Part shown: piece after piece, positions 2,083 through 57,300 of the stretch
Layout of the letters: the number at the start of each line of letters is the position of its first letter
Position numbering within the stretch: the stretch's first letter is position 1
Source of the DNA: Rhizaria sp. SCN 62-66
Lineage: Eukaryota
Length of the DNA stretch: 64,000 nucleotides
Direction of reading: 5' to 3'
Assembly: GCA_001724265.1 (NCBI GenBank)
Contig: MEDY01000030.1
Coordinates: forward strand, 1-64,000
Position numbers and translations under genes: made by a program
The notes under the pieces: model-generated
Databases searched by the model: none
What the model was told of the DNA's origin: nothing
Seen by the model: the letters and a program-made list of their open reading frames with translations, nothing else

Positions 2083-4923
2083 TTATGAGCCGCAGGAGAG
2101 GCACTCCTCCTTGTTGTCAAGGGAGCACATGACCTCGGCGCGCGCGCGCTCGCGCTCGGCGCGCCACGCGGCGAGGTTCGCGGCCTCCTCCTCCTCGCGG
2201 TCCGTCTTCTTGGTCGGCGTCTTGGGGGGCAGCTTCTCAGAGCGCACGGGCGACTGCGCGGCGCGCACCGCGGCGGGGCTTGCGGCCGCGGCCTCGGGGC
2301 CGGCGGCGGCGGCCGCGGCAGGCTCGGGGCCGGCGGCGGCGCCCGCGCCCGCGGCGTTGCCGGCGGCCTGCTTTGCCACTGCGGGGTCGAGCGTGAACTT
2401 GATGGCGTCGACGGCGGCGCGCGTGCGGAGGTAGTACATGCCCGTCTTGAGGCCCTTCTTCCACGCGTAAAAGTGCATCGAGGTCAGCTTGGCGTAGTTG
2501 ACGTTGGGCATGTGGACGTTGAACGACTGCGACTGGTCGATGTACGCGCCGCGGTCGGCGGCCATGTTGATGAGCGTCTTGCCCTTCATCTCCCACACCG
2601 TCTTGTAGATCTCGCGCAAGTCCTCGGGGATCTCGGTCAGCCCCTGCACAGAGCCGTTGTTGGCGATGAGCTTGTTCTTGAGCGTCTGGTTCCACAGTCC
2701 CTGGCGGATGAGGTCGCGCAGCAGGTGCGAGTTGACGCACACGAACTCGCCGGCCAGCGTGCGCCGCACGTAGAGGTTCGACGTGTAGGCCTCGAACGAC
2801 TCGTTGTTGCCCAGGATCTGCGACGTGCTGGCCGTGGGCATGGGCGCCACAAGAAGCGAGTTGCGCAGCCCGACGCGCTTGATGCGCTCCTTGAGCGCGG
2901 CCCAGTCCCAGCGCCCGCCCACCGTCGCGGGCTCCACGCCCCACATGTCGAACTGCAGCTCGCCGCGCGAGGCCGGCGAGCCCGGGAAGGACTCGTACGC
3001 GCCGTCGCGCTCGGCCATGTCGCACGACGCCGTCAGCGCGGCGAAGTAGATGGTCGCAAAGATGTCGCGGTTCAGCGCCTGCGCCTCCTCGGACTCGTAC
3101 GGCAGCCGCATAAGGATGAGCGCGTCGGCCAGGCCCTGGACACCGAGCCCGATGGGGCGGTGGCGCATGTTGCTCGTGCGCGCCTCCTTGACCGGGTACA
3201 GGTTGATGTCGATGACGCGGTTGAGGTTGCGCGTGGCGACTTGCGTCACCTCAAACAGGCGCTGGAAGTCGTAGGTGCCCGTGCGTTCGTCGACGAAGCG
3301 GTTGAGCGCGATCGAGGCGAGGTTGCACACGGCCACCTCGTCGGGCGACGTGTACTCGACGATCTCCGTGCACAGGTTCGAGCAGCGGATCGTGCCCAGG
3401 TTCTGCTGGTTCGACTTGCGGTTGCACGCGTCCTTGTAGAGGATGTAGGGCGTGCCCGTCTCCTGCTGCGCTTCGAGCACGGCCGTCCACAGCGCGCGCG
3501 CCTTGATCGTCTGCCGCGCGCGGCCCTGGTTCTCGTACTGCGTGTACAGCCGCTCGAAGTCGGCGCCCCACGAGTCGGCCAGCCCCGGCGCCTCGTGCGG
3601 GCAAAAGAGCGACCAGAGCTCGTTCTTCTCCACGCGCTCCATGAAGAGGTCGCACACCCAGAGGCCGTAGAAAAGGTCGCGCGCGCGCGCCTCCTCGGAG
3701 CCGTGGTTCTTGCGCAGGTCCAGGAAGGACATGATGTCGGCGTGCCACGGCTCCAGGTAGACGGCGAATGCGCCCTTGCGGCGGCCTCCACCCTGGTCGA
3801 CGTAGCGCGCCGTGTTGTTGAACACGCGCAGCATCGGGACCAGGCCGTTCGAGGTGCCGTTGGTGCCGCGGATGTAGGAGCCGGTGGCGCGGACGTCGTG
3901 AACCGCGAGGCCAATGCCGCCGGCCTGCTTCGAGATCATCGCGCACGTCTTAAGCGTGTCGTAGATGCCCTCGATCGAGTCCTCCTTCATGGTGACGAGG
4001 AAGCACGACGACAGCTGCGGCATGCACGTGCCGGCGTTGAAGAGCGTGGGGGAGGCGTGGGTGAACCACTTCTGCGACATGAGGTCGTACGTCTCGATCG
4101 CAGCGGCCAGGTTGTTGAAGTGGATGCCGCAGGCGACGCGCATGAGCATGTGCTGTGGGCGCTCGACGATCTGGCCGTGGAGCTTGAGCAGGTACGAGCG
4201 CTCGAGCGTCTTGAAGCCGAAGTAGTCGTAGCCGAAGTCGCGGTTGTAGACGATGGCCGCGTTGAGCGTGTCGGCGTTGGCAGAGATGAAGGCGAACACT
4301 TCGTCGTTGAGCAGCGGCGCAGGCAGCCCGGTCTTGGGCTCAACGTACGAGTGCAGGTCCGTCATGACGTCGGCGAAGTTCTTCTTGGTGTTCTTGTGCA
4401 GGTTGGATACGGCGATGCGGGCGGCCAGGATCGCGTAGTCGGGGTGCGTCGAAGACAGGTTCGCCGCGGTCTCAGCCGCGAGCTCGTCAAGTTCGGACGT
4501 GGTCACGCCCTTGTATACACCCATGCAGACCTGAGGTGGCGTGGGAGGTCAGATTGTGGTCGATTGTGGTGACATTTGATGAGGTCGGAAGAGCGCGCGC
4601 GCCAAAAGGGTGAGCGGGAGTAAAGGAGGCAAAAGATGATATAACACAAACAAGACAGGAAAACAGTGAGAGAATATCAAGGTATCCTTATGCAGCACAA
4701 TGTATGACATATCGGGATGATATGTTATTTTCAAACAAAGGAGGGGAAGTACGAGATATGCGTGTTGGAAGTGAGATAGGTACTGGGGTATACGAACCTT
4801 CTGGCTGACGAGGATAGGCTCGACAAACTCCTCATTGAGGCCGTAGCAGAGCTTGGAGATGCGGCTGGTAACCTTGTCAAAGTGGACAGGCTCCTTATGT
4901 CCGTCGCGCTTGACAACGTACAT
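2083..4923 (-). CDS. RRM1: Ribonucleoside-diphosphate reductase large subunit, class Ia (exons 4923-4798 and 4530-2083)
   Basis: ATP-cone start [22 protein letters not shown]. The intron at 4797-4531 (GTTCGT...CTCAG) joins [11 protein letters not shown]. Motifs include [44 protein letters not shown] and the C-terminal redox pair CLSCGS followed by TAA. Confidence 0.98.
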
Positions 4924-5133: not shown

Positions 5134-5145
5134 TTTGGCGCCAAA
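5134..5145. promoter_or_regulatory. Palindromic E2F-type site TTTGGCGCCAAA in the divergent RRM1/PPCDC promoter
   Basis: Exact match to TTTSSCGC on both strands, ~210 nt upstream of the RRM1 ATG. RNR genes are established E2F targets in animals and plants. Confidence 0.55.
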
Positions 5146-5357: not shown

Positions 5358-6278
5358 ATGAGCGAAGCGAACAAGAGGCCCAGGGTCTTGCTCATGCTGA
5401 CAGGCAGTGTTGCCTCGATCAAGGCAGTTGAGGTCGTCCAGGAGCTCATCAAGGCTGGCTGCGAGGTTCGCGTCATCGCGTCCCGCGCGTCGACGCACTT
5501 CTTCCCGCTCCGCGAGCTGGAGGATGTACTGGCGACGCAGACCGACTGCACCCCCGTGGTGCCTGACTTGTCCGTGCTGCGCTCGCGCCCCGCCGCCACC
5601 GCGCTCGACGGCGCGACCCCCTACGAGTTCTACTACAGCGCGGCGCACGCGCTGGCGCCGTTTGTGCACTTCGACGCGGACGAGTGGCTGCTGTGGCGGT
5701 CGCTGGCGGCGCGCGACCCCGTGCTGCACATCGCTCTGCGCGACTGGGCTGACGTGCTGCTCGTCGCGCCCGCCTCGGCCTCGTTCCTCGCGCGCGCCGC
5801 GCAGGGCGCGTGCTCCGACCTCGCGTCCTGCGTGCTGCGCGCCTGGCGCGCGCCGCGGCCGCTAGTGCTCGCGCCGGCGATGAACACGGCAATGTGGGAG
5901 CACCCCGCCACGCAGCGCCACCTCGCGCAGCTCGCCGCCGACTTCTTCCCCGCCGCGCCCGCCGCCGTGCTCGTGCCGCCGCAGGCCAAGCTGCTTGCGT
6001 GCGGCGACGTCGGCGTTGGCGCCATGGCCGCGCCCGCGCTAATCGCCGCCGCCGCTGCAGCCGCAGCCGCGCGCGCCCCGCTCCCCGCCGGCGTCTCGCT
6101 CATCATCACAAACACACCGACTTGCCACGACTGTCACGCTGACTCCGCGTCGGCTACGGCGGCGGGGCTGGGCTCGTCGGCGGTGCGCAGGGCCACGGAC
6201 GTGCTGTTTGGCGCCGTGCTTGCCTTCGCCGCCGCGATGCTCATCATGCGCCGGCCAAACCTCAGCGGCGCTGAGTGA
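5358..6278 (+). CDS. PPCDC: Phosphopantothenoylcysteine decarboxylase (HAL3/CoaC flavoprotein) with a C-terminal extension
   Basis: RVLLMLTGSVASIKA, VLHIALRDWAD (catalytic His), APAMNTAMWEHP and KLLACGDVGVGAMA (catalytic Cys clamp). Ends in TGA. Confidence 0.92.
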   Translation: MSEANKRPRVLLMLTGSVASIKAVEVVQELIKAGCEVRVIASRASTHFFPLRELEDVLATQTDCTPVVPDLSVLRSRPAATALDGATPYEFYYSAAHALAPFVHFDADEWLLWRSLAARDPVLHIALRDWADVLLVAPASASFLARAAQGACSDLASCVLRAWRAPRPLVLAPAMNTAMWEHPATQRHLAQLAADFFPAAPAAVLVPPQAKLLACGDVGVGAMAAPALIAAAAAAAAARAPLPAGVSLIITNTPTCHDCHADSASATAAGLGSSAVRRATDVLFGAVLAFAAAMLIMRRPNLSGAE

Positions 6279-6522
6279 CGAGTCAAGCTTCACTGTCGAT
6301 TGGCACAACTTGTATATTACATTTGTACTTATTAACCACTTGCACATCTGAGCGGTGGTAAATAATTTTATTTAGATTGTTAGCAAAACTATATAGATTT
6401 TATTCTCCGCAACATACGAACACGCGTATTCTTTCAATTCAAACAATAAAACACCGACTTAACATGAGACTCAACAACGTTATCAACGTTATCAAACTAA
6501 CTCAATCTGTTCAAACAACATC

Positions 6523-6835
6523 TCAGTCGACCTTGCATTCCGAACGTTCCTCGTGCTGCGAGCGCGTGAGCAGCTCATGTAGCTCGCTCCAGTCGCGGCC
6601 CGGCAGCCCCGCCTCGCCGCGGCGTGCCGCGTTGCCGCGCGCGAAGTGGTTCCAGCAGAGCTCGAACTCGCCGCTCTCGACGGCGCCGTCACGGTCCGCG
6701 TCCAGCCCCAGCAGCAGGTCCTGCGCCGCCGCCTCGGTGCACATCAGCACCGCGCGCGCCACCGTCAGCGCGCCGCCCACAGCGGCGCCGCTGTCGCTAT
6801 CGGCACCCGCGAGCCCCGCGGCCCCAGCAGCAGTA

Positions 6836-6901
<66 letters not shown>

Positions 6902-9900: not shown

Positions 9901-9988
9901 CACAGGCACTTGTCGTCGCCGTCGGCCAGACGTGGGGCTTGGCCTGAGGCGGAGCAGTCGCAGGGCCGAAGGAGCCTCCGCTTTGCAT
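6523..9988 (-). CDS. Ala-rich protein with an ankyrin repeat and a C-terminal EF-hand-like motif. Contains an in-frame TAG at 9587-9589 and an apparent frameshift at ~6900.
   Basis: ORFs 10024-9587 and 9577-6797 share a frame, joined by GAA TAG GCC GCA GGG GTG. Ankyrin repeat ADVNL..GYSPLLLACARRSTDVACLLLHHGADP. After the poly-GCT tract the plausible protein continues in another frame (LDADRDGAVESGEF...KVD TGA). Confidence 0.6.
6825..6904. repeat. (CAG/CTG)n trinucleotide tract, poly-Ala on the coding strand
   Basis: About 25 near-perfect agc units, with a phase break at 6900/6901. Confidence 0.9.
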
Positions 9989-10420
9989 TGTCTTAGTGGT
10001 CGGAAGAAATGCATAATAAAGCAATCATTAGATACTATTGAAAAAAAAACATTCAGATACACAATAAAATTAGAAATTCATGTCGCAATTTGGCGATGAC
10101 GGACTTTCTAAAGAGATATGCTGTATTTTAGCAACTGGTAATTGGAGGCTTGGCCAGCTTCCCGAACAGTAAATTGACATGAGCGGCGCGAGAAGGCGCA
10201 ATATGAAGCATTGGCGGAATAACCGCATTATTTCAGCGATATTACCACCGTTAAATGCTGCAAATCTACGTGTAACATCCAGATTCTACACAGATAATGC
10301 CAGTATTGCTGGAATATCGCTAGAGTGATAGCAATTCGCAATGCTGTAACCATCACACAGTGCCGCAAGTGTTGCTTGTGTGAGGTTGCAGCGGCGTCAG
10401 GCGTCATAGCTGACGCACGC

Positions 10421-10972
10421 TCACTGCTGCTTGGGCGCGGCGGGGCGCGCGTGCTCCCTGGCGGCCTTCTTTGCGGCCTCCTTAGCGGCCTCCTTGGCGG
10501 CCTCTTGGATGAGCCCCTCGTGGTCGCCGGTCTCGGTCACGTTGTGCATCACGCGCGCGGCGCGGGACTCGGCCGTGCTGCCGAACACGCCGCGCAGGTC
10601 TGCGCGCCAATGAAAGCAAAAAGAGGTCGATAATACAGGGAGAGGGAAGTCAGAGAGAGAACAAGAGGAAACAACGGGGAAACGTGGCAGTACGGAATAG
10701 AGCAAGAGAATGAAGTGAAATGAAGTTGAGCGGGGGTGTTGGGATTGTAGAGTAGACGGACCTTCGCAGTCGTGCAACTTGGCCTCAACGGCGGGCGGGT
10801 AGCGGCAGTGCATGTACTTGATGTTCGAGTAGACCATAGAGAGCGTCTCAGCCTCGTCGGCGCCGTGTAGCGGCACGAACTTGGCGTAGACGGCCTCGCG
10901 CGCAGCGAACTGGTCATCCGTCTCGTGCCGCATGCGGCGCAGGGCGCCCGCGCTGGGGGCGGCGGAGGACAT
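10421..10972 (-). CDS. Small XRN2-binding domain (XTBD)-like protein, probable intron 10761-10600 (~129 aa spliced)
   Basis: RRMRHETDDQFAAREAVY...LSMVYSNIKYMHCRYPPAV resembles the XTBD pattern (E.d..W..R..F...L+.v..N....gC.YP). A pyrimidine-rich 162-nt GTCCGT...GCAG segment looks like an intron. Ends in TGA. Confidence 0.7.
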   Translation of the reverse strand: MSSAAPSAGALRRMRHETDDQFAAREAVYAKFVPLHGADEAETLSMVYSNIKYMHCRYPPAVEAKLHDCEGPSTLQSQHPRSTSFHFILLLYSVLPRFPVVSSCSLSDFPLPVLSTSFCFHWRADLRGVFGSTAESRAARVMHNVTETGDHEGLIQEAAKEAAKEAAKKAAREHARPAAPKQQ

Positions 10973-11616
10973 CGAGGAAGTAAAGCGGGGAAGGCGGAGT
11001 GCTGGGTGTCAAGGAGCGGGCTGGGATGCGCTGGGGGGTCGAGCTGGATTTGAAAGAGAGCGACGAGGAGCGGGGCGAAAGTGACTGAGAAGTGGGTGAG
11101 CGCACAATGCTACGGGGAGAACAAGAACTCACATTTAACGTATAAACAAAACGTGATTAGATTAAAACCCTCTATTACAATACAAAAACGCCATCTATAC
11201 CCCTATTGTCGGATCATACATGTCGTTTAGCCAATAACTTTTCATAGTGCTGCTGCACCGCCCAGCAGCGGCTAGGCTACAGAGTCATCTAAGTTGAGCT
11301 TTTGACAAAAAGAGTTGAAAATCGTCATATACAAGGTCGAATCAGTGAAAATGTGGATATTTGTTAATTAAGAGCATTAAGTGTGTATGAGAAACGAGTT
11401 CAATATGCCACAACTCTCTGAGAATATACCGAGAGTTCCAATCTTAACGAACCACACGAAGTAGTTCAAAGCAGCATGACCCACACAACGCGTCGCTAAA
11501 CGAGACTGTTGCCGAAAACATATCATCACAGCCAGTCCCGAGCTGAATAAAACACAGTTCGCATGCGTTATGAAACCAAGTTACAATTACATAATAATAA
11601 AGAAAAGAAAAGAGAG

Positions 11617-11655
11617 AAACAGACAAACAGACAAACAGACAAACAAACAAAACAG
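11617..11655. repeat. (ACAG/ACAA)n microsatellite in the 3' region of the Na+/H+ exchanger
   Basis: aaacagacaaacagacaaacagacaaacaaacaaaacag. Confidence 0.6.
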
Positions 11656-11918
11656 ACACTCACAAAGAACACATACACACATCACAACAAAACTACTTGT
11701 AGGGCAGGTGAAAGACAAACACAGAAGGGCGCGATAAGATCCGGCCGCGCGCGAGTGCCTTGGTCGTGTCGTCCAGACATTGCCTGGCTTGACTCTATTG
11801 TGGTTGTTGCAGTTGTTGTTTCATTGTTGTTGCTGATGCTGCTGCTGTGGATGCGGGTGCATGTGTGCGAGCCCAACTTCGCTTACGCTTAGCTTAACAC
11901 TTCACTTCGCTTGGTTTT

Positions 11919-14027
11919 TCACCGCGAATCGTGCGAGGGCACAGTGTCGTCGCCGACGAGGTGGTTGCGGCCGACGCCGTCAGCGCCGTCCCCGGCGTCG
12001 CCGCCGCTGCCGCTGACGTGATGCGAGCCGTCGGGCAGCGAGATGTGCGCGTTGTACCCGGCCTCGGCGGCGAGTCCTGCGTCATAGACGCCGCTGCCGT
12101 CGCCCTCGGGGCCCAGCGCGCCCAGGTCGGCGAGGTTGCTGCCGTCGGAGCGCTGCACGTTGACGCCGATCTGCCCGTCAGCGAGGTACGCGTTCTCCTC
12201 CTGCTCGTCGCGCTGGCGCGACTCGTGCATGGCCTGCGGCATGTAGAGGTTGTTCATCGTCGTGTTGTCGCCGCCGTCGTCGCCGTGGCCCGCCGAGTAG
12301 TCGACCATGCGCGGTGCGTGCCGGCCGCCGAACCAGGGCTGCATGTATGCCGCGTCGAACCGTGTCCATATGCGGTGGAAGTTCAGCCGCTTAAGACAGT
12401 TGGTCTCGCGCGCCTCTGCCGTGCCGGCGCCCTCGCGCGTGATGGTCGACAGCGTGCGTGGGCGCTCGCCGGCCTGGTTGACGTACGTGAAGCGCGGATG
12501 CTCGGCGTTGGCCATGTCGGTGCCGTCGGCGCCCGCGAAGACGAAGGCGGCGCCCTGGGCCGGGCGCGTCGGATCGGGCCCTTCTTCGACGTCCTCGATG
12601 CCCAGCATGCCCATGCGGCCGAGCAGCCAGGTGGAGGAGCCGCCGAGGCCGAGCGTGGTGATGACGACGATGACCATGGTCGTGGTGATGAACCGCGCAG
12701 CGCCAGGGATCGGCGACTCCATGCCCAGTGCCAGCGCAAAGGAGATGGCGCCGCGGAGGCCGGCGAACCACATGACGATCTGCATCTTAAACGAGATCTT
12801 CTTGTGGCGGCCCAGGTTGGCGAGCGCAGAGAGCGGGAAGATGTTGAGCGCGCGGCCGATGACGCAGAGCACGACGGACCAGAAGATGAGCGAGAAGGAC
12901 CACTCGTAGTTGAACTTGCTCTGGGTGGCAAAGAAGGACGAGATGCCAAAGTAGACGAAGAGGAACGACTCGGCCATGTGTGCGAACGAGTGGAACGTGT
13001 GGCGCGACGTGGTACGCGTGATCGACGAGACGTTATACCACGCGTAATGGGCCATCATAACGCCGCAGACGAAGAGCGCCATGATACCGGACATGTGAAG
13101 CAGTTCGGCGACGGCGTAGCACGAGTAGGCGGAGAAGAGCAGCAGGATGAGCTCGTTTGAGGGCTTCTTGGAGAAGTTGACGCGGCGCAGCACGAAGGCC
13201 ACGACGAGCGCGAAGGCGGCGCCCAGCAGCAGCGACACGATCGACACGACGACGAACTCGCCCATGGCGCCGAAGTAGTCCGACGCGGTGAAGCCCGTGG
13301 TGACGGAGCGGAAGCCGCGGAACGTGTTGTAGAGCGTAATGGCAACAGCGTCGTTGAGCACCGACTCGCCGAAGACGAGCGAGTAGAGAAGCTGGTCGCA
13401 CTTCAGCTGCTTGTTGCCCAAAATGGCCAGCGTGGCAATGGGGTCGATGGAGGAGATGAGGGCGCCGAAGGTGAGGGGGTCCAGCACGTCGCCGGCGTCA
13501 ATGTTAACGGCACCAAGGTTGGCCAGCCAGTAGAGCCCGAAGCCGACGACAAAGGTGGAGATAATCGTGCCGAAGATGGCGTAGAGCAGAATGGAAGAGA
13601 TGTTCTTGAAAAAGTTCGTGCGCTTCATATTGTAACCGGCATCGAAGATAATGGGGGGCAGCAGCGCGTAGAAGAAGATGCTCGTCTTGAACTGAAGGAA
13701 GTCCGTCTCTGAGGCGCTCACGAAGTGCACAAAGACACCGACAAAGAAGCCGAAAATCATTGCTGCACCAGAGGCAGGCATCCATGTAATGTGAAACTGT
13801 CGGGGGCAAATAATAGTGAAGCAAATATGCATAATGAGCTCATGTGGGGTGCACTAAACCAGGAAATTGCGAGCCACTCGAATGGTCAGTTAGAGCCGGT
13901 TTTAAGGTGCACAGTGTAGCTTCCGCGGACGTACTTTGTCGATGAGAGACGCAAGGACGATGGTCATGACCAGCAACAGCGAGAACAAAATAATGTTCCC
14001 GCCGATGAAATCATGGTCGCCAGACAT
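11919..14027 (-). CDS. CPA1-family Na+/H+ exchanger (NHX/NHE8-like; exons 14027-13935 and 13796-11919)
   Basis: FFYALLPPIIFDAGY (amiloride-site motif), FGALISSIDPIA, LVFGESVLNDAV and WFAGLRGAISFALA. The intron GTACGT...GACAG joins IDK|FHITW. Ends in TGA. An additional upstream exon is possible. Confidence 0.93.
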
Positions 14028-14588
14028 GATTGCCTATACGGAGGAGGAGCCGAAGAGCCGAGATAACGTGAGCCGCAGGCGAGGGTAAGAAGAGAGAGCT
14101 GAGAATCTGAATTGCGAATTCGCAATGGTACTACCGCAATTGAACAGCACATAAATTGTCATTATACGCGAGCAAATACAAAATACATTCCAGTCACATG
14201 TACATAAGAAGAGAGGCAAGTTGCTCGTGAGAAAGCATCCCGAGCTCTTTTGCCACAACGGCATATCGCTCGATCGACCTTCTCGACGTGGTGGTGGGCG
14301 TCGACGGTAGTTCCTAAAAATTCGGGCCGACATCACATCGCTTCAAAGCTCATTTTCAAGTGCTACTGTCAAATTGAGAGTAATGATTTTTTTTTGGAAT
14401 ATATTTTTGAGGACTGATGATTATATTGATATTTACCTTATTTATTCGACAACTCGATCTATGCCGATTGGATTTCGAACACAAAGTGTGAACACTTCAA
14501 GTTGAGCTTTCGAACTGAAAGGAAAGGGTCATTACAAATCGGGTCAGACACGACCGTAGCTCGGCTTAAGTCAAAACAAACTTCATAA

Positions 14589-16368
14589 ATGTCACAGAAT
14601 AGCCGCCCCGAAGCCATTGACCTTGCGCTCAGTCCGACCCTGCCTCATGCAGTGACGGTAGTTGTCCGCAATGGGACGGCGCTTCCTCCTCGCAACAGCA
14701 GCAGCAATAGCGGCAGCGGCAGCAGCAGTAGCAGTAGCGACGCAGTCGCCATAAACGCTGACGCACAGGAGGCGCCCGCAGAGCCGTCACACGCGCGTAG
14801 TTCTGCACTCACAATAACCTACGGGGTTGTTCTCGCGACGCTCTTCGTGATTTGGTCCGTAACTCCACTCTCTGAAACCCCTTGCATTGACACACACAAC
14901 ATCATCACGCTAACTTAGCAACCGCCTCGTTTTCATTATCCGTGCACGCATCCACATACAGGGGAGTCCTGACGACCTTCACAACGGCGCTGGCAATGCC
15001 GATCCTCCTGTTGCCGCAGGCGCTGGTGCTCGCGTGGTGGGCCCGCAACCGCACGTTGCTGCCGCTGGACGCTGTCGTGGCCTGCTTCGCGCGCGGCCTC
15101 GCGCCGTACGCCGCGCTCACCTTCTTGTTCGAAGCAGTGTTCGTGCTTCTCGTCGCCATGCTCATGCTCGGCCTCGAAAATGCCACGGGCGCGTCTCGCG
15201 CCGCCACCGCAGGCGTCCTCTGCGTATGGTCACTGCTTGCTGTTGTCGAGGAAGCAGTCAAGTACCGGTACGTTAACCAGTCATTTTTGTCACTTAAACG
15301 CATAATAAGAGCAAAAACAAGGAAGAAACAAGGCAACAGAATAAAAGAGAGCAAAGTCACGAACTAACAACATCATATCCCTATGGTTTATCGACAGACT
15401 TGTCTTGCTTACTGAGCGCTCACCAGCGCTGCGCACTCCACCGGGCAAGGAAAAACTGTTGCTATCGACGGCGCAGACAACGGGGTTTGCGTGCGCACTG
15501 GCGTTGCTGCAGTGCTTGTTCTACTCCGCGGCGCGCACCGGCATCGGCGCCGCTTCGAGCCCCTCAGTGCGCGGGGTGGAGCGCGCCACGCACGCGCGCG
15601 CCGTGCTGACTGCCGCGGCGGCGCTGACAGCGCTGGTGCTGCCCGCGCAGTGCCTGGCCGGCTATCTGGTGTCGCTGCGCGTCGTGCTGCGCGACCAGTA
15701 CGGCTGCGCAGACTGGGGCGCGGACTCGGCGGCGCGGGTGGTGGCGCTGCCCGCGGCGCTGCGCACGGCGCTGACGCTGCACGTGCTGCTCGCGCTCGCG
15801 GGATTCTACGACGGCGCCGGCGCGGCGCTGTTCTGGGTCGTGCTCGCCGTGCCCGCGCTCGTCGTCGCGGGCGTCCTCGCCGCGGTCGCGCACGCCACGG
15901 AGCGCAGGCTGCCGCCGGAGTACCTGCAGCGCGTGGGCTCACTCATGGTATGCCGAAACACCGCGAGATGAAATTAAAACGACATGTTCTGATATTCGGA
16001 AACCTTTTGTGAACTGGCAATAACGGTCCAATAATCTTCCAAGCACGCTCACTGTCTTTGCTTTCCCACATTATCATTTCCACTTTTAGTGGGCATATGC
16101 GCGTCTGACGGGCGACGACGAAGGGGCACCGCCGTTGTCGCCAAGCGTCATGGAACTGGCACGCCACAACCGCAGCCGCGAGGCAGGGGTGGACGCCGGA
16201 GTGAGTGGCAATGTGCAGGACCCAGCGCCGATCTCCGCGGCTTCAGAGCTGCCAGCTGCCGCCACAGTCCCGTCCGCAGCGGTGTCGCCCGTGTCGCTCG
16301 CGCAGCCGCAGACCGACAAGGCCGAGACCGCCACTCAGCGCGCGCGCTCGCCAGCAACAGAGGTGTAA
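14589..16368 (+). CDS. Multi-TM protein resembling the PrsW/M82 glutamic intramembrane protease family (exons 14589-14854, 14962-15267, 15398-15947, 16090-16368)
   Basis: Three GT-AG introns restore one continuous frame. About 8 hydrophobic segments, with AVVEEAVKY (EExxK) and GFA motifs. Ends in TAA. The family call rests on motifs only. Confidence 0.6.
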
Positions 16369-16408
16369 AAAAAGATTGGGTGAACGAGTTGTCACAAGTT
16401 CCATTAGA

Positions 16409-18070
16409 TCAAGGACTGACCATGTTGCGGCTGTCAGTGTGATACTTCCGAACAGGGCTGGCAGCAAGCGCGCGCGCAATGACAGCAACCGCGATGGCGG
16501 TGACAACCAGCGTGTATCCCATGACGACTGTGAGCTGCGTCGCGTCCGCAACCGGCACCGCGAGCACTGCGCCCTCCGCGGCCTCGGTGGCCTCAGCGAC
16601 GAGTCCGATTGCGCGCGCGCGGCCGTCAACGCACGCGGCAACGAGCACGGCGGGCGGGAGCGCGACCGCGACGCTGCCGCCGCCAGCGCGCGGGGCGTGG
16701 TAGCGCGCCGACACCGCCACCTTCGCCTCAGCGGCGTCGGCAACGCCGCCAGTGACGGACAGCGCGGGCAGCAAGAGCACGTGCGCGCGCGGGGCGGCGC
16801 CCGCTGCGGCCTCGATGTCGGGCTCGTGCCGCTGCCACGTGCGCTGCGAAGCACTGAGACTCTGCAAAGCCGCGCTAGCGTTCACATCAGCGTCAGCGTC
16901 AGCGGCAGCAAGCGCGGAAAGTCGGTCGGCCTCGCGCGCAACGAAGGGGTCCGCGTAGAGGCCGCCACCAAGCGGCTGCGCCACAACCCACGCGCACTGC
17001 TGCGCATGACCGCTTCCAGTAGCAGTGGCAGTGCCAGTGGCGGCGTCAGCGCCAGCGGCCTCGGCGGCGCAGGTGCGGGCGTCCCGGTCGCAGTGAAGAG
17101 TAAACGTCAGCGGACGGTGCAGCCCCGCGCCTCGCAGCGCGCGCGTGGCGGTGCAACGGCACGGCGTGGTCGGTTGTTGCGACTGCTGTGCTGGTGCGGG
17201 CGCGAAGAGCTCGAGCTCGAGCCCGAGCGTGCGGGCACGGGCAGCGTCCAGCCGTGGGACTGCGCCTACACTGGCGGCCGCGGGGGCGGTGGCTGTAAGC
17301 GTAACCACCGGGCCGGCAGCGGTGACGGAGACGCGCACAGTGAGCGGGGCGACGGAGCCGTTTTGCGGGGCGGTGGCGCTCTCCAGAGCCGTCGCGGCGA
17401 GTTGAGTGAGACGCATCGCGGCCTGCGTGGCCGGGGACGCGGTGGAAAACACGGCTAAGGCGACAGGGAGACGCAGCGGGAAAGCACCGGAGCACACGGC
17501 GGAGCGCGTGTGCGCGCGCTTGGGCGCGGCCCGTGAGCTCGACTCTGCCAGGTCTGCCAGAGCACGCGTGGCGAGGAACTCGGCCCCGCGCAGCAGCACG
17601 TCAATGTCGGGCCGCGCCGTGGCGACAGCAGCATGCGCGGACGTGGAAGGCTACTAACTCTACGTTGACACTGCAGGTGTGGAAAGAGCGTGAGACATGA
17701 GGTCGTCTGCGGTGGTCTGGCACGGAGACTCGGAGCTGCGTGGATGACCAAGCCAATACAGAAAGTCCGTTAGGGCGTCGTGTCCTGAGCCCGCAAGCTC
17801 ACCAAATGCAAAGAAGTCATAATTTCCACTCTCACCACGGCGGATTGCAAGGTCAAAAGCGTCCGAATACGCAGTTATACTCTCGCTGCTGTTTATGGAG
17901 CCTGAGTTGAGGTAGACTTTGGCGGATGTGAAGCTACCGTCGTATGACAGGCTTAAGAGAGGCAAGGACGGCGCACTAACAGCACCCTCCAAAGAACCGG
18001 AGCACGCCACAGCCGCAAATACCATCAAAAAGAGCGTGGTGTTCCCCCACTTGCAGCGTAGAGAACGCAT
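16409..18070 (-). CDS. PIGX: PIG-X/PBN1-like GPI mannosyltransferase-I subunit, with three in-frame TAG codons (17660, 17654, 17651)
   Basis: N-terminal signal-like segment LFLMVFAAVACSG, then GLYADPF, PDIEA, ARYHAP, LPPA, VPVAD and a C-terminal TM helix, consistent with PIG-X. The two ORF-track pieces are in frame across ACG TAG AGT TAG TAG CCT. Ends in TGA. Confidence 0.72.
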
Positions 18071-18789
18071 TGTGACCTGGACCACAACAAGATTTCGGCA
18101 ACGTTCGAGCAGACCTAGTCAAGGAAGAATATACAGAAAAAACAAAGACACAAAAAGTATAATTAAAATATTAGCATATATCCTCTATGTTGAAACATAT
18201 ACTTGCGTACAAGTTGCATTTGACGATCAATATGAAGCATACAACATTGGATTAAACAAGGAGCGATCATCATGTCATAAGGTTACGCACAAGCGCATCA
18301 TAAGAGATTGAACAAGTGTGTTATTAAAATGAATTATTTATTAAGCTATCCTTTGAAGAAACACAGTATCACTCTAGCAACTACGAATACTGTGTTTGGG
18401 AGGGAAAAGAGGGCGAGCGCACACTAAACGGAACACAAACAGAAACAAAAAGATAGAACAGAGAGAACAGAAAAGAGAGGCTTCAAGCCCTCTTTATACA
18501 TATCGGAGATGTACAACAGAGGGAAGATGAGGATGATGAAGAAAAGGTAAAACCAAAAGGAAGCATAAACCAAAATCAGAGAAGGAAATAAGACATATCA
18601 ACTATTAATATCATGACTGTAGAAATACATCAAAAACCGTACACAACAAAAAAGAATCGACAAAGAGATGGAATCGACATATGAGTCCACACACTACACA
18701 CAGCACGCGCGTATGGATTTTTTTTAGTGTAGCAGCGCATTGTGTGTGTACGCAGGAACATTCTCATGTGTTATAATACAAATTTCACT

Positions 18790-21700
18790 TTAAAAGTAGC
18801 CATTCTGGCCGTTCTGCACCGATTGAGCCCATACATCGTTGTCCTCGAGCTCATTCTCGTCGTGCTCGTCCTCGCGGTAGAACAGGTTGTCCTCAGCAGC
18901 GACGTCCGCAGCCGTGACGGCCTGGCCGCCGAACGAGACCTTGCCCTCAGCGACGTCGACAGCGCCGAAGCGGTTGTCGACGGCGCGCTGCTTGATGCGG
19001 TCCGCGACGTCCTTCTGCGCCTGCGCGATCGACTGCGCAAGGAAGTCGGTGTTGTGGTCGGCGTCCTGCTCGTCGTCGTCGTCGTCGTCGTCGTGGAACG
19101 TGATCGCCTTGACCGTCGTCGTCGCCGCGACGGCCTTCTCCAGGTCCGCCACGAGGTCCGCGTCCTCGGCCTTGTGCGCAGCCACAGCGGGCGTGCCCGG
19201 CGCGGTGTTATTGGAGGCGGACGAGGCGGACGACTTGGGCGCGGGCTTCTTCTTGAGGATGCGCTTCTTCTTGTCCGAGGAGCGTACCAACGCCGCAGTC
19301 GTCGCCGCCGTCTCGGTCGACACAACGCTGGCAGCGGCGTGACTGCTCGCGGCGTGGCTGCTCCCGGCGTGGCTGCTCGCAGCAACCGAGGGTGCGGCCT
19401 CGCCGCCAGAGTGCACGACGATAACGTCGTCAGTGTTGACGGCGCGGTCCTCCGGCGCACGTGTGCCACTGGTCGAATGCTCAGTCGACGAGCCCGCGGC
19501 CTTAGCGGTCGTGTTGGCATCGCGCGAGTGCGAGGTCGAGTGGTCACGCTTGTCCTCAGAAGTGTCCTCGACAGACTCGGCGTTCGTCTCACCAGGCGCC
19601 GCAGCCGCCACAGCAGCAGCAGCAGTGTCACCAGACGCGGGCGCAGTGGCAGCCTTGGCAGCGTCAGGAGTGGGCTTGGAGCCCGAAGTGGAGCCGGAGC
19701 CGGTGCTGACGACAGAGGTCTCGCGCGAGTTGGACGTGGACTCGCTGCCGTCGAGGTACTGGTCGAGCTCGTTGCGCGCGTCCTGCTCCACAGACTGCAC
19801 GAAGATGTCGCGCAGGTTCTCGTCCATCGACGCCTTGCCCATGCGGGCCTCGCGGCGCTTGCGCTCCTCGCGGCGCCACGTCTGCAGCAGCGGGGACGGG
19901 TCGAGGTTGCGGCGCAGCGCGACGCGGACAGCGTTGCGGATCTGCTCCGTGCGGCGGTTCTGCTTCGTAAGCAGGACGAGGACGATAACGGCGACGACGA
20001 AGAAGAGCATGAAGGCGGCGAAGATACCAGCAGTGATGGCGTCCTTACTCGACTCGGTGATCTCATTCTCAATCATGTAGAAGTTGGCCAGGAAGAAGAG
20101 GTTGAAGGTCGCCAACAGAGCGGCAAACTCAAAGTGCTCCAGCAGCGACTGCTCGAACGGGCGCACGGCCGTCTGCGCTGAGATGGCAGAGAAGGCAACG
20201 AAAGAGGCCATGAGGAGCTGCACGTGCATCTGCCCGGGGAAGAAGATCGACACGGCGACGTACAGGACCTTGCGCGCCATCTCGACGATGAACCAGTAGT
20301 ACCAGCGAGGCTGGAAACCAAGGAACAGGAACGAGAAGCCGTACTCAACGCGGTGGCGCTGGCGCAGCTCCGCAACAGCGAGCTGGTTAGGCTGAGCGCG
20401 CATGAGACGAGCGTTGCGACGAAGGTACAGGAAGAAACCAAGAGGCACACCGATGATCCAAAGCACAAAGAGCGCGAGACCAAGGGTGAACATCCACGCA
20501 AAGTGCTCGCCACTAAAGCATACCAGGGACATGTCCGCGAGAACGAACATACGCGAGTTGTGCGGCAGGTCAAACACCTCTCCATCGGCCAGGTTGTCCG
20601 CCGCGGTGGCCTGGATGAGGACGTCAGAGCCACCACCGACAGTCTTGCAGGCAATGAGACGGAAGAAGGCGCGCGAGATGTTGGGGTGGAGCAGGTAAAG
20701 CGCAGTGGCGATGCAGCAGATGTAGATGTACTGGTACGTCTGCAGCAGCTCAGCCAGGCGGTCAATCGTGTAGCGGAAGATACGGCGGTCACGCTGCAGC
20801 TGCAGGTACTCGGTACCCTGCTGCGAGGCCACGTGGTCCATCAGCACAGACGCCGAGGGCATGCGCTTGAGACCACTGCGGGCCATCTGCGAGCGCGACA
20901 TCGAGCGCGAGGGCTCGGCGCCGTTGGGATCAGCATCAGTCTCGCCACCAGCCTGCACAGTGCTGTTCTCACGCTTGAGGAGACCACGCGCCGTGAGACG
21001 GGGGCCGATGAGACTCTCACGGAAAGACTTGTTGCGGTGGGTGCGCACGCGGCGGCTCGAAGCAGTGCTCGAGGCCATGGACGTGCGGGACACATCGGAG
21101 CCGGACAACGACGGGCGGCGCGAGCGCGTGGTCTCGCCCTCCTCCATCTCGTCCTCGTTGTTGATCGTAGGCTCCTCAGTAATCGCACTCATGGGGTCCG
21201 CAGACTCAGCAGCGGAGGCGCCAAACGTCTTGGACGAGGTAGCCGTCGAACTCATCGACTGCCGCTGCTCGCCGAAGCGGCGGCGCGGCGCGGGGCTGCG
21301 CGCGGCGGCGGCGTAGCCGTCATCAGCGCCATCCTCAACGAAGTCGTCCACGTGGAACTCAACCTGCGAGAGAGCATTGTTGTTCGAAGGCGCGCTCATG
21401 CGCATCGACACACCGAGCGCCGAAGTCGCACGCGACACACTGGCACGGCTCGCGCCAGGGCGCTGCATCGACACCGACGGGCGGTTGTTACGCGAAACAG
21501 TCGGGGAAGTGCGGCCAGCCTCGGAGCCGGGGCGACTGGCGTTGGCCTGGTTAAGGTCGATGTTGAACTCCGTGAAGAGCTCATCAGCGCCCTCGCCGTC
21601 CTCATCATCGCTGCCGTAGTGAATATTGGGCATGTTGGGAACGGGAGGGGGCGCGAGCGGGCCGCTGTTGCGACTGCCGCCCATCGACTGCATCTCAACC

Positions 21701-47600: not shown

Positions 47601-50600
47601 CACGGGCGGTGGTGAACTGCGTCACTGTGTGGTTCGGGATTGGGGCCGTGAGCTGCAGTGTGCCGGGTGCAAAGTGAACTTCCTTCATTGTGTTGGAGTT
47701 GGCTTCGACCGCGGAAGCAGAGGGTGCCACGGCGGGCTCCGTCGTCGCCGTCGCTGTGATGCCCAGAGACTCGTCCACGGCCGCCGAGCCGCCCATCGCA
47801 GATCCGCTCATTGCGGAGGCGCCGCCATCGTGCCCGTGGCTGGTATTGTTGGGGTTGTTGCTGTTGTTGTTGTTGTAGCGCATGTGCGCGTACTCTGGGT
47901 CGTCTTCCCTGACATGGTGGTCATCGTGATGATGATGTTCATCATCATCGTGGTGGTGACCGTGATCGTCCTCGCACTCGCCCTCGGCGACCGCGTCCGT
48001 GAACGTGTTGCCGTTGCCCTGTCCGTCGCCGTGGCTGTGAGTGCGGCGGTAGTGGTCCTCGCGCTCAAACCGCGCGCGGTCGTGATCGGGCCCTGCACTC
48101 GCGCCGCCGGAGCCGACGACGTTGATCATAAGCTGGCCGTACTCGGCCGCGGCGGGGATCTCGTTCGCCGCGGCCGCGATCTCGTTGAGCAAGTGCACGT
48201 GGTCAGCCAGCACGAACTGCTGTTGTGGCGGGCCGGGGATGGGGTTGGGCACCATTGCGCCCGACGCCATAGACGACGTATCATCGACTTCCTAGTAGTA
48301 TTCCGAGTACCGTGGCGTACGGATGGGCTCGTCGTAGGCCGCCGTGTACGGGTTCACCGTTTCCGTCTCCACGGCTTCGTCGACAGGCGTGGGGCCGTAG
48401 AAGTCGCGGCCGACGCGGATCGGCGCCACTTCGTCGTCGTCGTGGATGATCGGCAGCGGGGGACCACCAGACTGCTGCTGCTGTTGTTGATACAGCTGTT
48501 GTTGTCGCTCAGGTCCGCCAAACTCTAGCGGCGCCTCGCCATCGATGCCCTGCTCCTGCATCATCATCATCATCATCATGGCCTCGTCGCCCTCAAAGCC
48601 CTCCATCATCACCGCGCCCTCGTCACCGCCCTCGCCCATGTGTGCGGCGGCAAACGGCGGCAGCGGTGCATGGCCTGCAGCCGCTGCGAGGTGCATATCG
48701 AGCACTTGTTGGTCCATCTCGCCGAAGTATTCGACGTCAGCGCCTGCGCCACCGACGCCGCCGCCGGCCCCGCCCGCGCCGCCGCCGCCACCGAGCCCGC
48801 CCAGCCCGCCGCCGCCGCGCCCGCCGCCGCGGCCGATGCCGCGACTGAGCCCCGACCCCGTGGCGAGGTACTGGAACCCGTCATCGTCCTCGATAACTTC
48901 CTCCGCGGCGCCCGCGGAGGGCGAGAAAGTGTAGCGCGCGTCGACACCCTTGCGGCGGCCTTCGAGGCGCCAAGTGCGCATCTCACCTTTGCCTTTGACG
49001 GGCATCGTGCCCAGGTCGGCGAGCGCGTAGCAGATGGACTCGGATGGGTGCAGCGCAGTGCCAACGGGGTCAGACCGGATGTCTTGGCCGGCCTCAATTT
49101 CGTTATCCGGAGTCATGACGAGACGCGCCGTGTCGGACGAAAGCTGGATCGTGTCGGGCTTGCACGTGGAGCCCATGCGTGACGAGGTGTTGATTGTGTC
49201 GCCGATGATGCGGTAGCGCGGGTAATGCACGCCGATCACACCGGCGACGACGGCGCCAGAGTGCAGACCCATCTTCATGCGCAGCTGTGGGAAAAGCTGT
49301 CGGATGCTCGCCAGAGCACGCAGCGCCAAGTCGCACATAACGTCGGCGTGTAGCACTTGCTCGAACGGGCAGCCGCACGAGACGAGGTAAACCTCACCGA
49401 TCGTCTCAACCTTGTACACACCGTACGCCTTAAATTCGGCGAGCTTGGCGTCTAAGTCAAGGAAGATCGCGTTGAGCAGCATGACGAGGTGTGGCGCTTC
49501 GATGCGGGAGGCGATCTTGTCAAAGTCGCAGATGGAGGTAAACATGATGGTGACGGATGGGAAACGCTCCCACGCCTGCTGCATCGCAGTGCTCTTCATG
49601 CGGTCAACAATGGGCTTCGGCAGCATGCGCAGCAGCACCATGTTCATGTTGCGCTCGTACGTCTTAATCTGCGTGTTGAGCAAAAACGACTGGCGGTCGA
49701 AGAGTTCTAAGTTATAACCTGCGCGCGCACGGAGCGCGATAGCACACAGCATCACAGCGGCCACAATGGCCCAGCTGGCGTATGTCGACAGCGTATAACG
49801 GCCGACAAGCGGCAGCGCAACGAGCGGGAACGCGCTCACTTCACCGGCCTCGAGCAGCGCAAAAACGACCCACACGAGGAAGCTGAAGATGTTTAGTACA
49901 GAGGCGACAACCCACTTGCGCTGGACGTCTGAGTGGCCCCACAGCATGACGGCCAACAATGGCGTCAGATACAGCGGGTTCAGCGTCATCCACAGAAGGA
50001 ACGCGCAGAGAATGTGAATCAGCACGAGGAGCAGCAGCGCAGCAGAGCGGACGACCTCAGCCGCTGGCATGAACGACGTCAAATGTGAGTAGAACGTGTA
50101 CGGCATCGCCGCGCGCACTGTGTGCCACTGCTCCGGCGTAGAGCAAAACGCCGTGCGGTCGTCCACAGCCGCACCCGCGCCGCCGGCGTCGCCGCTGTCG
50201 GTCGGGCCGCCGCCACCGTCACCACCACGGCCGCCGTTAACGTCATCGTCGCCGTCGACAGCGTAGTCGTCGTCGAAGTCGCCCGGTGACCGCACGTTAC
50301 CGCGTCCAGCGGCGAGGGGTGACTCAGCGCCGTCGGGCAGCATACGCTCAACCGCCTCTGGCAGCTCCGCCGTGGGCAGGTCTTCGTCCTGCGCCGCGGT
50401 CGCCGCGGCAGTACGGTTTGTGTCGGCCACGAGCTCTGCGCCGTCGCTCAGCACCACGCCGTCGTGGTTCACTTCGAGCACCACGGAACCCATGGGCACG
50501 TGGGCGCCGTCGTCTGCGCGCGCGGCGTTAGCGCTAGCGGCCGCGGCGGCGCTGGCGGCGGCGTTGGCGGCGGTTTGGGCCTTGCGTGCGGCGACGACAC

Positions 50601-54369: not shown

Positions 54370-57300
54370 ATGAGCCGACAAACTCGAGTTCGCGCCCAAC
54401 AAGATGGGCAGCAACCCACCTTCAGCTAGCACTCGGCTGTGTGGGTCGACGGAGCGGGGGCGTACAACGCCAACGCCTCCGGTCCGGGCTTTCTGAGTGA
54501 CAGCCTGCGTAAGCGGCTTGAGGACGCAGGCTACGCCATCAACACGGCGGACCAACTCCCTTCGCTGGATGAGCTCACGCGTCTCATCACAGTCGATCTC
54601 GCCGGTCTCTGGCTCGCCCCTAGCCGCGTCCGTGCCATGTTTCCCGCCCCGGCGGCACCACAAGCAGCGACAGCGCCCACCGCAGGGGCGACGGCTGCTG
54701 CGCAGCCGTCTATGCGCGCTCAGCGGCTGCCGCGCCGCAACAATAGCCGCGTTACCGAGGTTGTGCTCATTAGCGACTCCAGTTCGGAGGCCGGCTCCGA
54801 CAACGAAGATATTCGCGGTGGTATCAAGGCCGGCGACAACATGGCCGACGGCAGCAGTGCTGTCAAGATCGACGGCGGCGCCAGTGCTGTCCGTGCGCAG
54901 CTCGCACCGGTCGCGGACGCGGATAACGATAAGAACGCTAAGAACTCCGCCGCCGATGTCAAGCCCGTCGACATGAAGCCAACCGCGGCGGATCAGAAGC
55001 CCGCCGCCGTGGCTGGCTACATGACAGATGCCGCTGTGCCTGCTGATTTTAGGTCTGCTACCTCTGCCTCTGCGTTTGGTCCCGCTCTGCCCCCGTCCTC
55101 AGCCGCTGCCGCCTCTGCTGCAGTGACCTTGACCGCGACCGCGGCCGTTGCTGCAGCCGATGCGGACGCCGGCGACGACACCGACGCGGCGCTGCGGCCC
55201 GCACTGCTCCGCTCCGTGCTGCAGCTCACTATTGAGGCCGCCAAGACTATCTCCGCGCTCAACTGGGGCGAGCGGTCCACGCCGACGACAGAGCTACTGC
55301 AGCGCGCGATGTCATCCTCGCACAACCGCGCCGGTCCACTGCCCGCCGCCGCCCTCACTGGCACGGCCGCACTGCTGCGCGCGCTGCGTGAACGGTCCGC
55401 GCCCGGTGAGCCTCTGTATGTGGCCCTCGAATCAGCCCCCGCGGAGGCCGTTGCGCGCACGCTGTTCCTCCTGCAGCGCGCTCGCCTCGCGCGGCACGTC
55501 GTGCGCATCCTCAACGCCGCGCTGCTGGACGGCGAGTGGGCGCGTCTGGAGCCCGCCGCGACGACGCCGGCGCGCGAGGCCAAGTTCGAGCTCACGACAG
55601 ACTGCCCCGCGGAGCTGTTTCTGACTCTGTGGAGCGATGTGATGACCGTGCTGGCGCAGGCGCGGTGGCTGGATCACCCGCCGCCCGCCGCGCGCCCGCA
55701 GTCGCTGCCGCTGCCGGCCGTGGGGGACGTGCTGCCCGCGTGGATGGAGCTGCCCGCGCAGCCGAGCCCGACGCCGACGATGCTGTGGCACGAGAAAGAG
55801 CGGCAGCGCGGAGAGTTTTCCGTCCGGTTCCCGTTGCCGCCTGCCGTGCTTGCACGCATTGTGCAGACGGAGCGTGCGCTGCTCGCGGATGACGCGCGCG
55901 CTAATGCTGACGCAAACGCTCACGCACACGCCAATTCCAGCTCCAGCTTCAGAGCCAGCGTCAGTGCAAGTGCCAGTGCGAGGGCGAGTGATGACAGTGG
56001 CGCTGGCTCCGGAGCGTTGCAGCCTTCGGCGTTATCTTCAACACTGACAATGCAAGGCCAGACACCGATTTACGGCGTCGCGCCTGTGACATTCTACGAC
56101 TTATTGGGCGCTGACGGCGACGCGCCCGGCTGCTACGAATCGTGGCCTCGCGCGCTGCTGCGCCAGCTTAACGTTTCACAGCAACAGCAGGAAGACTAGC
56201 GGCAGGAGCATAATGTGCGCAGTGAAGCTGACCTGCGTGCGTTAACGCCCGATGAGTGCGCTGCACTGATCGAGAGCCAACTCCCAGCGCCAGCGATGCT
56301 CATGGTTCACTTACAGCGCACTGACAGCGACGACCGCGTCGGCAGCAGTGACGTAGACCAGGACGAGGTGGGCGGGCCTGACGAGGCGCGACTGCGGCTG
56401 CTGCGGCGAAAGCACGTGATGTCTGCTCTTTTCGCCGGGACACACGTGGCGCCCGACTTTGACCCGTATGGACTCACCCTGCGCGAACCCTGGACGCCCC
56501 GCGCGCCGCTCTCCCATCTGCTTTCACCGACGCCCACAGTCTCTCCCGAGCCGGCTACTGCATGTACTCGTGGCTCGCTTGAGGTTGTGCTCTTCCAGTT
56601 GGCGCTGGAGCGGCTGGAGACCGCCGCCGCGCTGCCGTGGCCCGTTCCGCCGCCATACCTGCGCCGGTTTTGCCACGCCGCTGGCCATGCACGGGCTCCG
56701 CCGACCGCAGCGCCGCCCGCGTTCCCGTCCCCCGGGTGGTCCTTTCGCGCGCAGCTGCTGACGCTGGCGTGCCTGGCCAGCGCGATGCCGCTGCTGCACC
56801 CGCTGTGGGCGGACCGGCTGTGGCGCAGAACGCTCTCGGGCTCGGTCAGGCTCCTGTGGCGGCTACCGGATCAGGCGCTGCGGAGCGACACGACGTGCGA
56901 TGCGTTGTTGAAGCTACTGTTGGCCACGATGAACCGCGCGAGTGTGGCGGCGCAGCGCTGGGAACCGATTCCCTGGCTCTTGTTTGGTGAGACCGTTGAC
57001 TTCGCGCTCACGCCGCCTGCGATCTGGCTCGGCCTTGCCGCAGGGGTGCGGTTTGCGCTGTCGCCGATTCTGTCGCGCCGTATTGCCGGACTGACGTTGC
57101 TGCAGGGCCATGTGTTCATGATCCGTCGCTCATTCAGCCAGATTCGCAAGAATTTTAATGAGATTGAGGGGTTCAAAGCCTTCAATGCGAGCCTCGGCAT
57201 CCCTGAAGGTCCTCTGATGCTACCAGCTTCACGCGAAACCCCCGTAAGCTTGTTGTTCCGCGTGCGACCGCGCCAAGCCTTCGAACTTTCTTCGCCGGGC

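Follow-up and report, generated by a model that had tools for sequence, protein, structure and literature searches.

The window, as we call the whole stretch of 64,000 nucleotides that was analysed, corresponds to contig C30 in a eukaryotic assembly of 34.9 Mb. Its minus strand carries a gene for a PIG-X/PBN1-like protein in which three TAG codons lie close together, and the features of this gene are as follows.

16409..18070, minus strand: PIG-X/PBN1-like coding sequence, 553 codons with TAG read through, a single exon with TGA as its stop
17999..18070, minus strand: signal-peptide-like hydrophobic segment, residues 1-24, recognized by hydropathy only
17651..17662, minus strand: TAG AGT TAG TAG, with TAG as codons 137, 139 and 140, within a linker rich in Ser, Thr, Pro and Ala; the likeliest reading is E-S-E-E
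17171..17185, minus strand: QSQQP motif to which an earlier, sequence-only reading compared the TAG cluster; probably a coincidental low-complexity echo
16469..17128, minus strand: residues 315-534, which match the PIG-X/PBN1 domain and reach into a C-terminal transmembrane segment

PIG-X/PBN1 is the partner of PIG-M in GPI mannosyltransferase I. As the sequence-only reading had noted, the minus strand from 17665 to 17648 reads ACG TAG AGT TAG TAG CCT. The TAGs lie at 17660-17662, 17654-17656 and 17651-17653, and the frame from the ATG at 18070 to the TGA at 16409 is open apart from these three codons. The product has hydrophobic stretches at residues 11-24 and about 520-536 and matches the Pfam family PIG-X/PBN1 (PF08320) with an E-value of 3.4e-9 and 37.4 bits, against a gathering cut-off of 23. 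It resembles that family in its domain, its N-terminal hydrophobic segment and its C-terminal transmembrane segment, but differs in having about 300 extra N-terminal residues that match neither a family nor a solved structure. A PDB search with the protein gave no match below an E-value of 1.9, and a search for full-length homologues or orthologues returned nothing beyond the genome's own downstream piece. The sequence-only reading noted that the part downstream of the cluster lacks a signal peptide and an early ATG; the first Met of that part is residue 219, and the signal-peptide-like segment, as far as hydropathy indicates, lies upstream. Databases carry this gene and an ABCA gene of the same genome as fragments cut at TAG (P0122, P0248, P0251).

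At the pooled TAG rate of 1.4e-4 per codon, two further TAGs would fall within three codons of a first with a chance of about 6e-8 if they were independent, so the cluster is not a product of chance. The sequence-only reading saw in it a mirror of the QSQQP motif of the same protein and took TAG to mean Gln. Gln is indeed the best of the 20 residues for the internal match to that stretch (6 of 8 positions, with Ala second at 5 of 8), but the echo is weaker than it seemed: the proteome is rich in Gln, and its 109,129 residues contain QSQQP 4 times, by our estimate about 2% per 553-residue protein. The two stretches share only 12 of 24 bases and encode Ser as AGT in one and TCG in the other, so the pair is not a recent duplication. 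The cluster is more simply explained by drift at tolerant sites, with slippage giving rise to the pair of adjacent TAGs, than by a role as an attenuator.

In-frame TAG is directly observed inside genes of this genome. We scored the sequence on both sides of each TAA, TAG and TGA with a coding model trained on genome DNA, excluding the codon itself. In 462 kb, 17 TAGs, 2 TAAs and 0 TGAs had coding sequence on both sides at a threshold of 3, and 11, 0 and 0 at a threshold of 5; a further 526 kb gave 9, 3 and 3 at the lower threshold and 5, 1 and 0 at the higher. Pooled at threshold 5, there are 16 internal TAGs, 1 TAA and 0 TGAs in 113,393 codons, an excess of TAG over its non-coding share with p of 1e-10. 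TAG is the rarest sense codon of the set, at 1.4e-4 of codons (ATA occurs 22 and AGA 42 times), and even this figure errs upward, since of the 20 kinase loci 12 had been selected for a stop in their match. Gene ends give the converse picture: without a donor-like motif nearby, 22 of 44 end in TAA, 22 in TGA and none in TAG. With such a motif nearby there are 35 TAA, 17 TGA and 6 TAG ends, and five of these TAGs follow GTACGT and mark introns, while the sixth falls in non-genic sequence ahead of a CDK gene. The probability of finding none in 44 is 0.02 if TAG made up 10% of ends and 0.17 if it made up 5%, so ordinary terminal use of TAG is excluded, but not use at a few percent of ends. The internal TAGs that we inspected lie in eRF1, ABCA, a Slh1/Brr2-like helicase, five kinases, two ubiquitin-hydrolase (UCH) genes and a Rab-like gene, and GC3 near TAG sites equals background (p of 0.63). 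That TAG is a sense codon in this nuclear genome is, in our view, nearly certain, and the sequence-only reading was right to give it an amino acid. In the tests run, UAA and UGA are kept as stops, and TAG alone appears to be reassigned.

Two further TAGs with coding sequence on either side fall within the window.

48292..48294, minus strand: in-frame TAG in a gene of 3179 codons (41656-51195) that carries two cyclase domains
56197..56199, plus strand: in-frame TAG in a long UCH gene

The frame at 41656-51195 (minus strand) describes a membrane cyclase whose catalytic domains, about 2000 residues apart, are joined through this one TAG, and a standard-code gene caller would split it into two genes. 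The long UCH frame has a second TAG at its codon 21 (window position 54427, plus strand), which may precede the true start. Between 18790 and 39402 on the minus strand lies an intron-free frame of 6870 codons, rich in Thr, Ser and Val like a giant surface protein and free of TAG; an intron-free frame of about 11,200 codons on G000:C1 is likewise without TAG. Matches to ABC, AAA and cyclase domains contain no TAG. The ten dynein heavy chain loci yielded no site that could be used, their TAGs lying within the first 171 or the last 33 codons of stop-to-stop frames; the TAG of the SNF2 match falls on the first position of that match, and the TAG of a DEAD match was rejected as a sense codon because it is intronic.

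Some observations bear on the organism itself, which we detected in sequencing runs from bioreactors and wastewater belonging to several studies. The named matches to its ribonucleotide reductase (RNR) include three cercozoans (two Paulinella and Mataza), which is a hint only, and a quick RNR tree did not join the cercozoans to the query. An RNR homologue (P0004, 76% identical) has 1198 residues and an additional match to PF13403, so that this eukaryote-type RNR may contain an intein. The sole 18S rRNA match (G000:C706:4459-8903) spans 4445 nt, is AT-rich and divergent with large insertions, and may be foreign to the organism; one of its insertions resembles a group I intron with a His-Cys-box-like reading frame. 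Ubiquitin is encoded by separate tandem monomer genes (G000:C3:11200-14100 and a further locus) with RLRGG-HPQ-stop ends and MSMQIF starts instead of an assembled polyubiquitin; two copies look internally deleted, and a search for polyubiquitin junctions found none.

The genome encodes a tRNA that could read UAG, and it too is directly observed.

G000:C84:76008-76080, minus strand: tRNA gene with anticodon CUA, single copy, found by pattern search, by ARAGORN and by Rfam (58 bits, full length)

This gene lies on an 86-kb contig, with a formin gene on one side and Sld5/Vps39 genes on the other, and is intact, with paired stems, no encoded CCA and a T-run behind it. A looser pattern returned 18 matches, among them one CUA tRNA and no UUA tRNA, the rest being read as Thr, Pro, Lys or Leu tRNAs or as chance matches. 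Free-energy folding of the tRNA is not significant (z of -1.5); the covariance model is. It is identical to the genome's own tRNA-Glu(CTC) at 47 of 73 positions and to tRNA-Glu(TTC) at 40, against 33 for tRNA-Gln(CTG) and 29 for tRNA-Gln(TTG), and pairwise alignment ranks them alike (64%, 60%, 49% and 45%). In the first five acceptor pairs it agrees with both of the genome's tRNA-Glu and differs from the genome's tRNA-Gln. It further carries U11-A24, U13.G22, A46 and a four-base variable loop, all Glu determinants in E. coli as described in part of PMC9976931; the same source names C36 as a further determinant for E. coli GluRS, which counts against Glu. In a phage collection, the 19 longest matches (at least 77% of the tRNA) comprise ten annotated features, all tRNA-Glu, and nine unannotated ones, with weak E-values of 0.2-7. 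By its sequence, then, the body of this tRNA is of the tRNA-Glu type.

Bacterial-like D and T arms on a eukaryote-type acceptor stem give this tRNA a composite appearance that raises the possibility of a foreign or organellar origin: four bacterial tRNA-Glu agree with it at 50-54 of 73 positions, and their D and T arms are the same as its own or nearly so. These bacterial tRNAs were chosen as best matches, and the host's own tRNA-Glu were the only eukaryotic ones in the comparison, so foreign origin is a lead only. A pattern scan of viral contigs found no CUA tRNA.

One of the internal TAGs lies in the gene for the release factor, where a large set of homologues can be aligned.

G000:C63:103463-103465, minus strand: in-frame TAG of the sole eRF1 gene found, at human position 107, in the N-domain

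A family search found one eRF1 and one pelota-like gene. The exon with the TAG aligns without gaps to 237 residues of human eRF1, and the same TAG is present in a separately assembled contig, possibly from the same sample. A scan of metagenomes for eRF1 returned one identical contig and 31 distant loci, and no close relative. Two substitutions, T32S and G57S, are peculiar to this eRF1 (Thr and Gly stand there in 117 of 117 homologues), and a third, T58K, is common to the nearest relative (P0126, 84% identical), which retains T32 and G57. The protein keeps E55, L69, S70, Y125 and the NIKS motif. Residue T32 is in contact with the G at the third position of UAG, and Iotanema has Gly in its place (PMC5304391, in part), whereas the standard-code relatives of Iotanema retain Thr (PMC9161772, in part). 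In the portion of PMC3632111 available to us, human eRF1 with T32S releases normally at all three stops in vitro, a nearly neutral change, and E55 and Y125 matter for UAG recognition. From these residues, the eRF1 of this organism may still compete at UAG, and such competition would explain both the rarity of UAG and the single copy of the tRNA. The UAG inside eRF1 is also a possible autoregulatory site. Among the metagenome loci, L195 and L196 encode divergent eRF1 in which CIKS stands in place of NIKS and the N-domain contains in-frame stops of the TAA/TGA type; they probably come from ciliates or others with a variant code.

Which amino acid UAG specifies can be approached through the residues that homologues carry at TAG columns. 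At the eRF1 site, 117 homologues have Glu 108 times, Asp 8 times, Val once and Gln never; the nearest relative has the Val, and one distant metagenomic eRF1 has Gln. At the ABCA site, which 146 of 150 matches cover and for which the query carried Gln, the column holds Ala 43, Glu 26, Ser 20, Gly 17, Asp 12, Pro 11 and Gln 0. Elsewhere TAG aligns to Gln, in human NEK1 and in the genome's ubiquitin paralogues. The columns in CaMK (Tyr or Lys) and in Brr2/Slh1/ASCC3 (Lys, Glu or Cys), and that in USP5, beside a gap, carry no information on the residue. A first context classifier gave no discrimination. On 26 TAG sites, a calibrated context test fitted pure Glu with a log-likelihood of -50.5, pure Gln with -40.3 and, best of the three, a mixture of 40-50% Glu with -38.2; at least three of the eight neighbours are Gln at 6 of the 26 TAG sites, compared with 1.3% of Glu sites, and several TAGs lie within poly-Gln runs. 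Thus the TAG sites are not plain synonymous Glu sites, and many descend from CAG. Since CAG is nearly as common as GAG (4337 and 4927 codons), C-to-T is a transition and the change from Gln to Glu is mild, we infer that Gln-type contexts are to be expected under a Glu code too. The calibrated test rejects pure Glu, but once mutation from CAG to TAG is allowed for it does not tell a Glu code apart from a Gln one. Protein evidence alone does not settle the matter; the assignment draws mostly on the tRNA, from which we judge it probable that UAG specifies Glu.

The Gln assignment of the sequence-only reading is probably wrong, since the sole CUA tRNA found has a Glu body. It would correspond to a code of the Iotanema/Hartmannula type, produced either by GlnRS mis-charging the CUA tRNA or by a second CUA tRNA, of Gln type, that the assembly lacks. 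As a single class the contexts fit Gln better than Glu, the poly-Gln sites, the NEK1 and ubiquitin columns and the PIG-X motif agree with it, U35 is a GlnRS determinant, and bacterial amber suppressors can be charged with Gln (PMC9976931, in part). Against this stand not only the type of the tRNA but also the BLAST search with the genome's own tRNA-Gln(CTG), which found five copies and no CUA variant in an assembly that may be incomplete, the absence of Gln from all 117 and 146 homologues at the two deepest-sampled columns, and the transitions from CAG to TAG that would give Gln contexts under either code. We consider a Gln code unlikely.

A mixture of Glu and Gln, through dual charging or through competition from near-cognate tRNA-Gln(CUG), would have TAG tolerated only where either residue works. 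It gives the best context fit; TAG is very rare, with none found at invariant Glu motifs in eleven family scans, and one copy of the CUA tRNA faces eight matches to tRNA-Glu(CTC) and five to tRNA-Gln(CTG). The same blend of contexts is, though, expected from mutational origins alone. Human tRNA-Glu with a CUA anticodon, moreover, is charged by GluRS like the native tRNA, and with an engineered form of it about 95% of the residues inserted are Glu, the remainder being Lys and Met, not Gln (PMC12204705, in part). We regard such a mixture as quite unlikely.

A different objection concerns the PIG-X cluster itself. The sequence-only reading had named an intron with its acceptor at the last TAG as the case that would overturn its interpretation, and this caveat is serious because TAG is a frequent splice acceptor in the genome: lone TAGs could not be accepted as sense codons without inspection, and 4 of 9 in kinase matches, together with TAGs in kinesin, one Rab and myosin, proved to be acceptors. 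The cluster could then be spliced out (for example with a 21-nt in-frame or a 152- or 185-nt intron), or belong to a pseudogene or an assembly error, under a standard code. GT sites are present upstream, GC climbs from 0.54 to 0.72 at the cluster, and the nine strain differences in the gene are five non-synonymous and four synonymous, none creating a new stop. We aligned four runs to window positions 1800-19000, as contigs only, from which rare forms drop out, and used an intron elsewhere in the window as a control.

4531..4797, minus strand: ribonucleotide reductase intron, GT..AG, 267 nt; splicing control for run X5

Contig 23 of run X5 covers 17002-17893 with no gaps and six differing letters, none of them in 17651-17662, and includes the candidate donors at 17802 and 17835. 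The RNR contig of the same run skips the 267-nt intron, with no cover at the listed positions within it, and on account of this removal we treat X5 as RNA, though it was flagged as probably DNA. X5 comes from a different strain and a different study, and the three TAGs are retained unspliced in it, in what is one informative run; the contig speaks both against an intron at the last TAG and against an assembly error, and the sequence-only reading had argued that three clustered stops are hard to attribute to independent sequencing errors. Contig 16 of run X4 also spans the cluster, with part of its differences listed; the poly(A) run X7 has no piece over it among the matches listed. A pseudogene is opposed by the upstream 136 codons, which are open and whose coding score, from 18010 to 17710, is positive in the PIG-X frame alone. 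Splicing or error at this one site would in any case leave the TAGs of eRF1, ABCA and the kinases and the CUA tRNA unexplained. This account of the cluster is largely refuted, and we hold a standard code on these grounds to be very improbable. Most improbable of all is that the code is standard, that UAG is read leakily by near-cognate tRNAs and that the suppressor tRNA is incidental. The UAG-reading residues that eRF1 retains, the great rarity of TAG and the 5% terminal use allowed by the clean ends are compatible with this. Against it, three UAGs in four codons, an objection already raised by the sequence-only reading, and the UAG of the sole eRF1 gene found call for efficient decoding, and the CUA tRNA is intact.

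We propose that this nuclear genome has reassigned UAG alone to sense. The single-copy tRNA(CUA), with its tRNA-Glu body, would be charged by GluRS and insert Glu at UAG, and UAA and UGA would remain stops because CUA cannot pair with UAA. We infer here that the tRNA is charged with Glu, which residue the protein carries and how efficiently UAG is read through. PIG-X would be made as one type I membrane protein of 553 residues, with T-E-S-E-E-P-S-T at the cluster. UAG would enter genes mostly at tolerant positions, from GAG (a synonymous change) and from CAG (Gln to Glu), and its origin from CAG would account for the several TAGs in poly-Gln runs.

A more speculative extension, to which we give a minority chance, is that the reassignment is at an early, ambiguous stage, in which a tRNA-Glu(CUA), possibly acquired horizontally, contends with an eRF1 still able in part to read UAG and UAG acts as a tunable attenuator. 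The acquired tRNA would have been refitted with a eukaryotic acceptor stem; its D and T arms are closer to bacterial tRNA-Glu (50-54 of 73 positions overall) than to the host's own (47 and 40). UAG in eRF1 would close a negative feedback loop like that of bacterial prfB, and the triple UAG of PIG-X would throttle the synthesis of GPI anchors with the third power of read-through efficiency. Release factors are known to regulate themselves, in bacterial prfB through an internal stop with a frameshift (PMC11463598, in part) and in plants through a read-through/NMD circuit of eRF1 (PMC5397192, in part). The likeness is that a stop-type codon in a release-factor gene could tie synthesis to the factor's own level; the difference is that the putative circuit here would involve in-frame decoding of UAG by a cognate tRNA within the coding region.

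Nuclear codes that separate UAG from UAA are few, and here the tRNA and the release factor are visible in one genome, which is lacking for the rhizarian exLh and for Iotanema. Since only about one codon in several thousand is UAG and the known UAG-reading residues of eRF1 are kept, the reassignment may be near its start, the stage at which the codon-capture and ambiguous-intermediate models part. Codes this rare escape standard gene callers, as the truncated database entries for PIG-X and ABCA illustrate. The organism is possibly obtainable, given its occurrence in bioreactor and wastewater runs.

Reassignments of UAG alone are described for exLh (Leu) and Iotanema spirale (Gln) in part of PMC5304391, and for phyllopharyngean ciliates (Leu and Gln) in part of PMC11687900, which also states a reassignment to Ser; the UAG = Gln code comprises Iotanema, Hartmannula and Trochilia. 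UAG as Glu with both other stops kept is absent from the codes covered in the available parts of PMC5304391, PMC10553269, PMC11687900 and PMC9161772, and our searches of the open-licence PMC and bioRxiv literature found no case. Among codes that read UAG as Glu, that of Oligohymenophorea sp. PL0344 (UAG = Glu, UAA = Lys; PMC10553269, in part) is similar in its use of a tRNA-Sup(CUA), which is nearest to tRNA-Glu there (69-93%) as here (64%). It differs in that UAA is a stop here, at 22 of 44 clean ends, with no UUA tRNA found, and the present genome, with GC-rich exons and introns of 100-300 nt, is not ciliate-like. The UAR = Glu codes of peritrichs and Blastocrithidia (PMC11687900, PMC12153298, each in part) likewise decode UAG with tRNA-Glu(CUA), a tRNA present in both PL0344 and Blastocrithidia (PMC10553269, PMC12153298, in part), and Blastocrithidia avoids reassigned codons in highly expressed genes (PMC12153298, in part). 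In those codes UAA is also Glu, and in Blastocrithidia UGA is Trp, whereas internal codons here number 1 for TAA, 0 for TGA and 16 for TAG, and eRF1 keeps S70.

With exLh, Iotanema and the phyllopharyngeans, the present genome shares UAG as a sense codon, UAA and UGA as stops and the need for a CUA tRNA. Like that of Iotanema, its eRF1 is altered at T32 in the GTS loop, to Gly there and to Ser here; unlike exLh, which has L69A, it retains L69. UAG occurs in 78-91% of phyllopharyngean genes (PMC11687900, in part) but makes up only 1.4e-4 of codons here, and in contrast to Iotanema, Hartmannula and Trochilia no Gln-type CUA tRNA was found, in an assembly that may be incomplete. The code appears to work like those of the exLh/Iotanema class, though UAG may still terminate at a few percent of gene ends; it stands outside the UAR = Glu and PL0344 codes, and it differs from exLh, Iotanema and the phyllopharyngeans in the amino acid that UAG specifies, which here is probably Glu.
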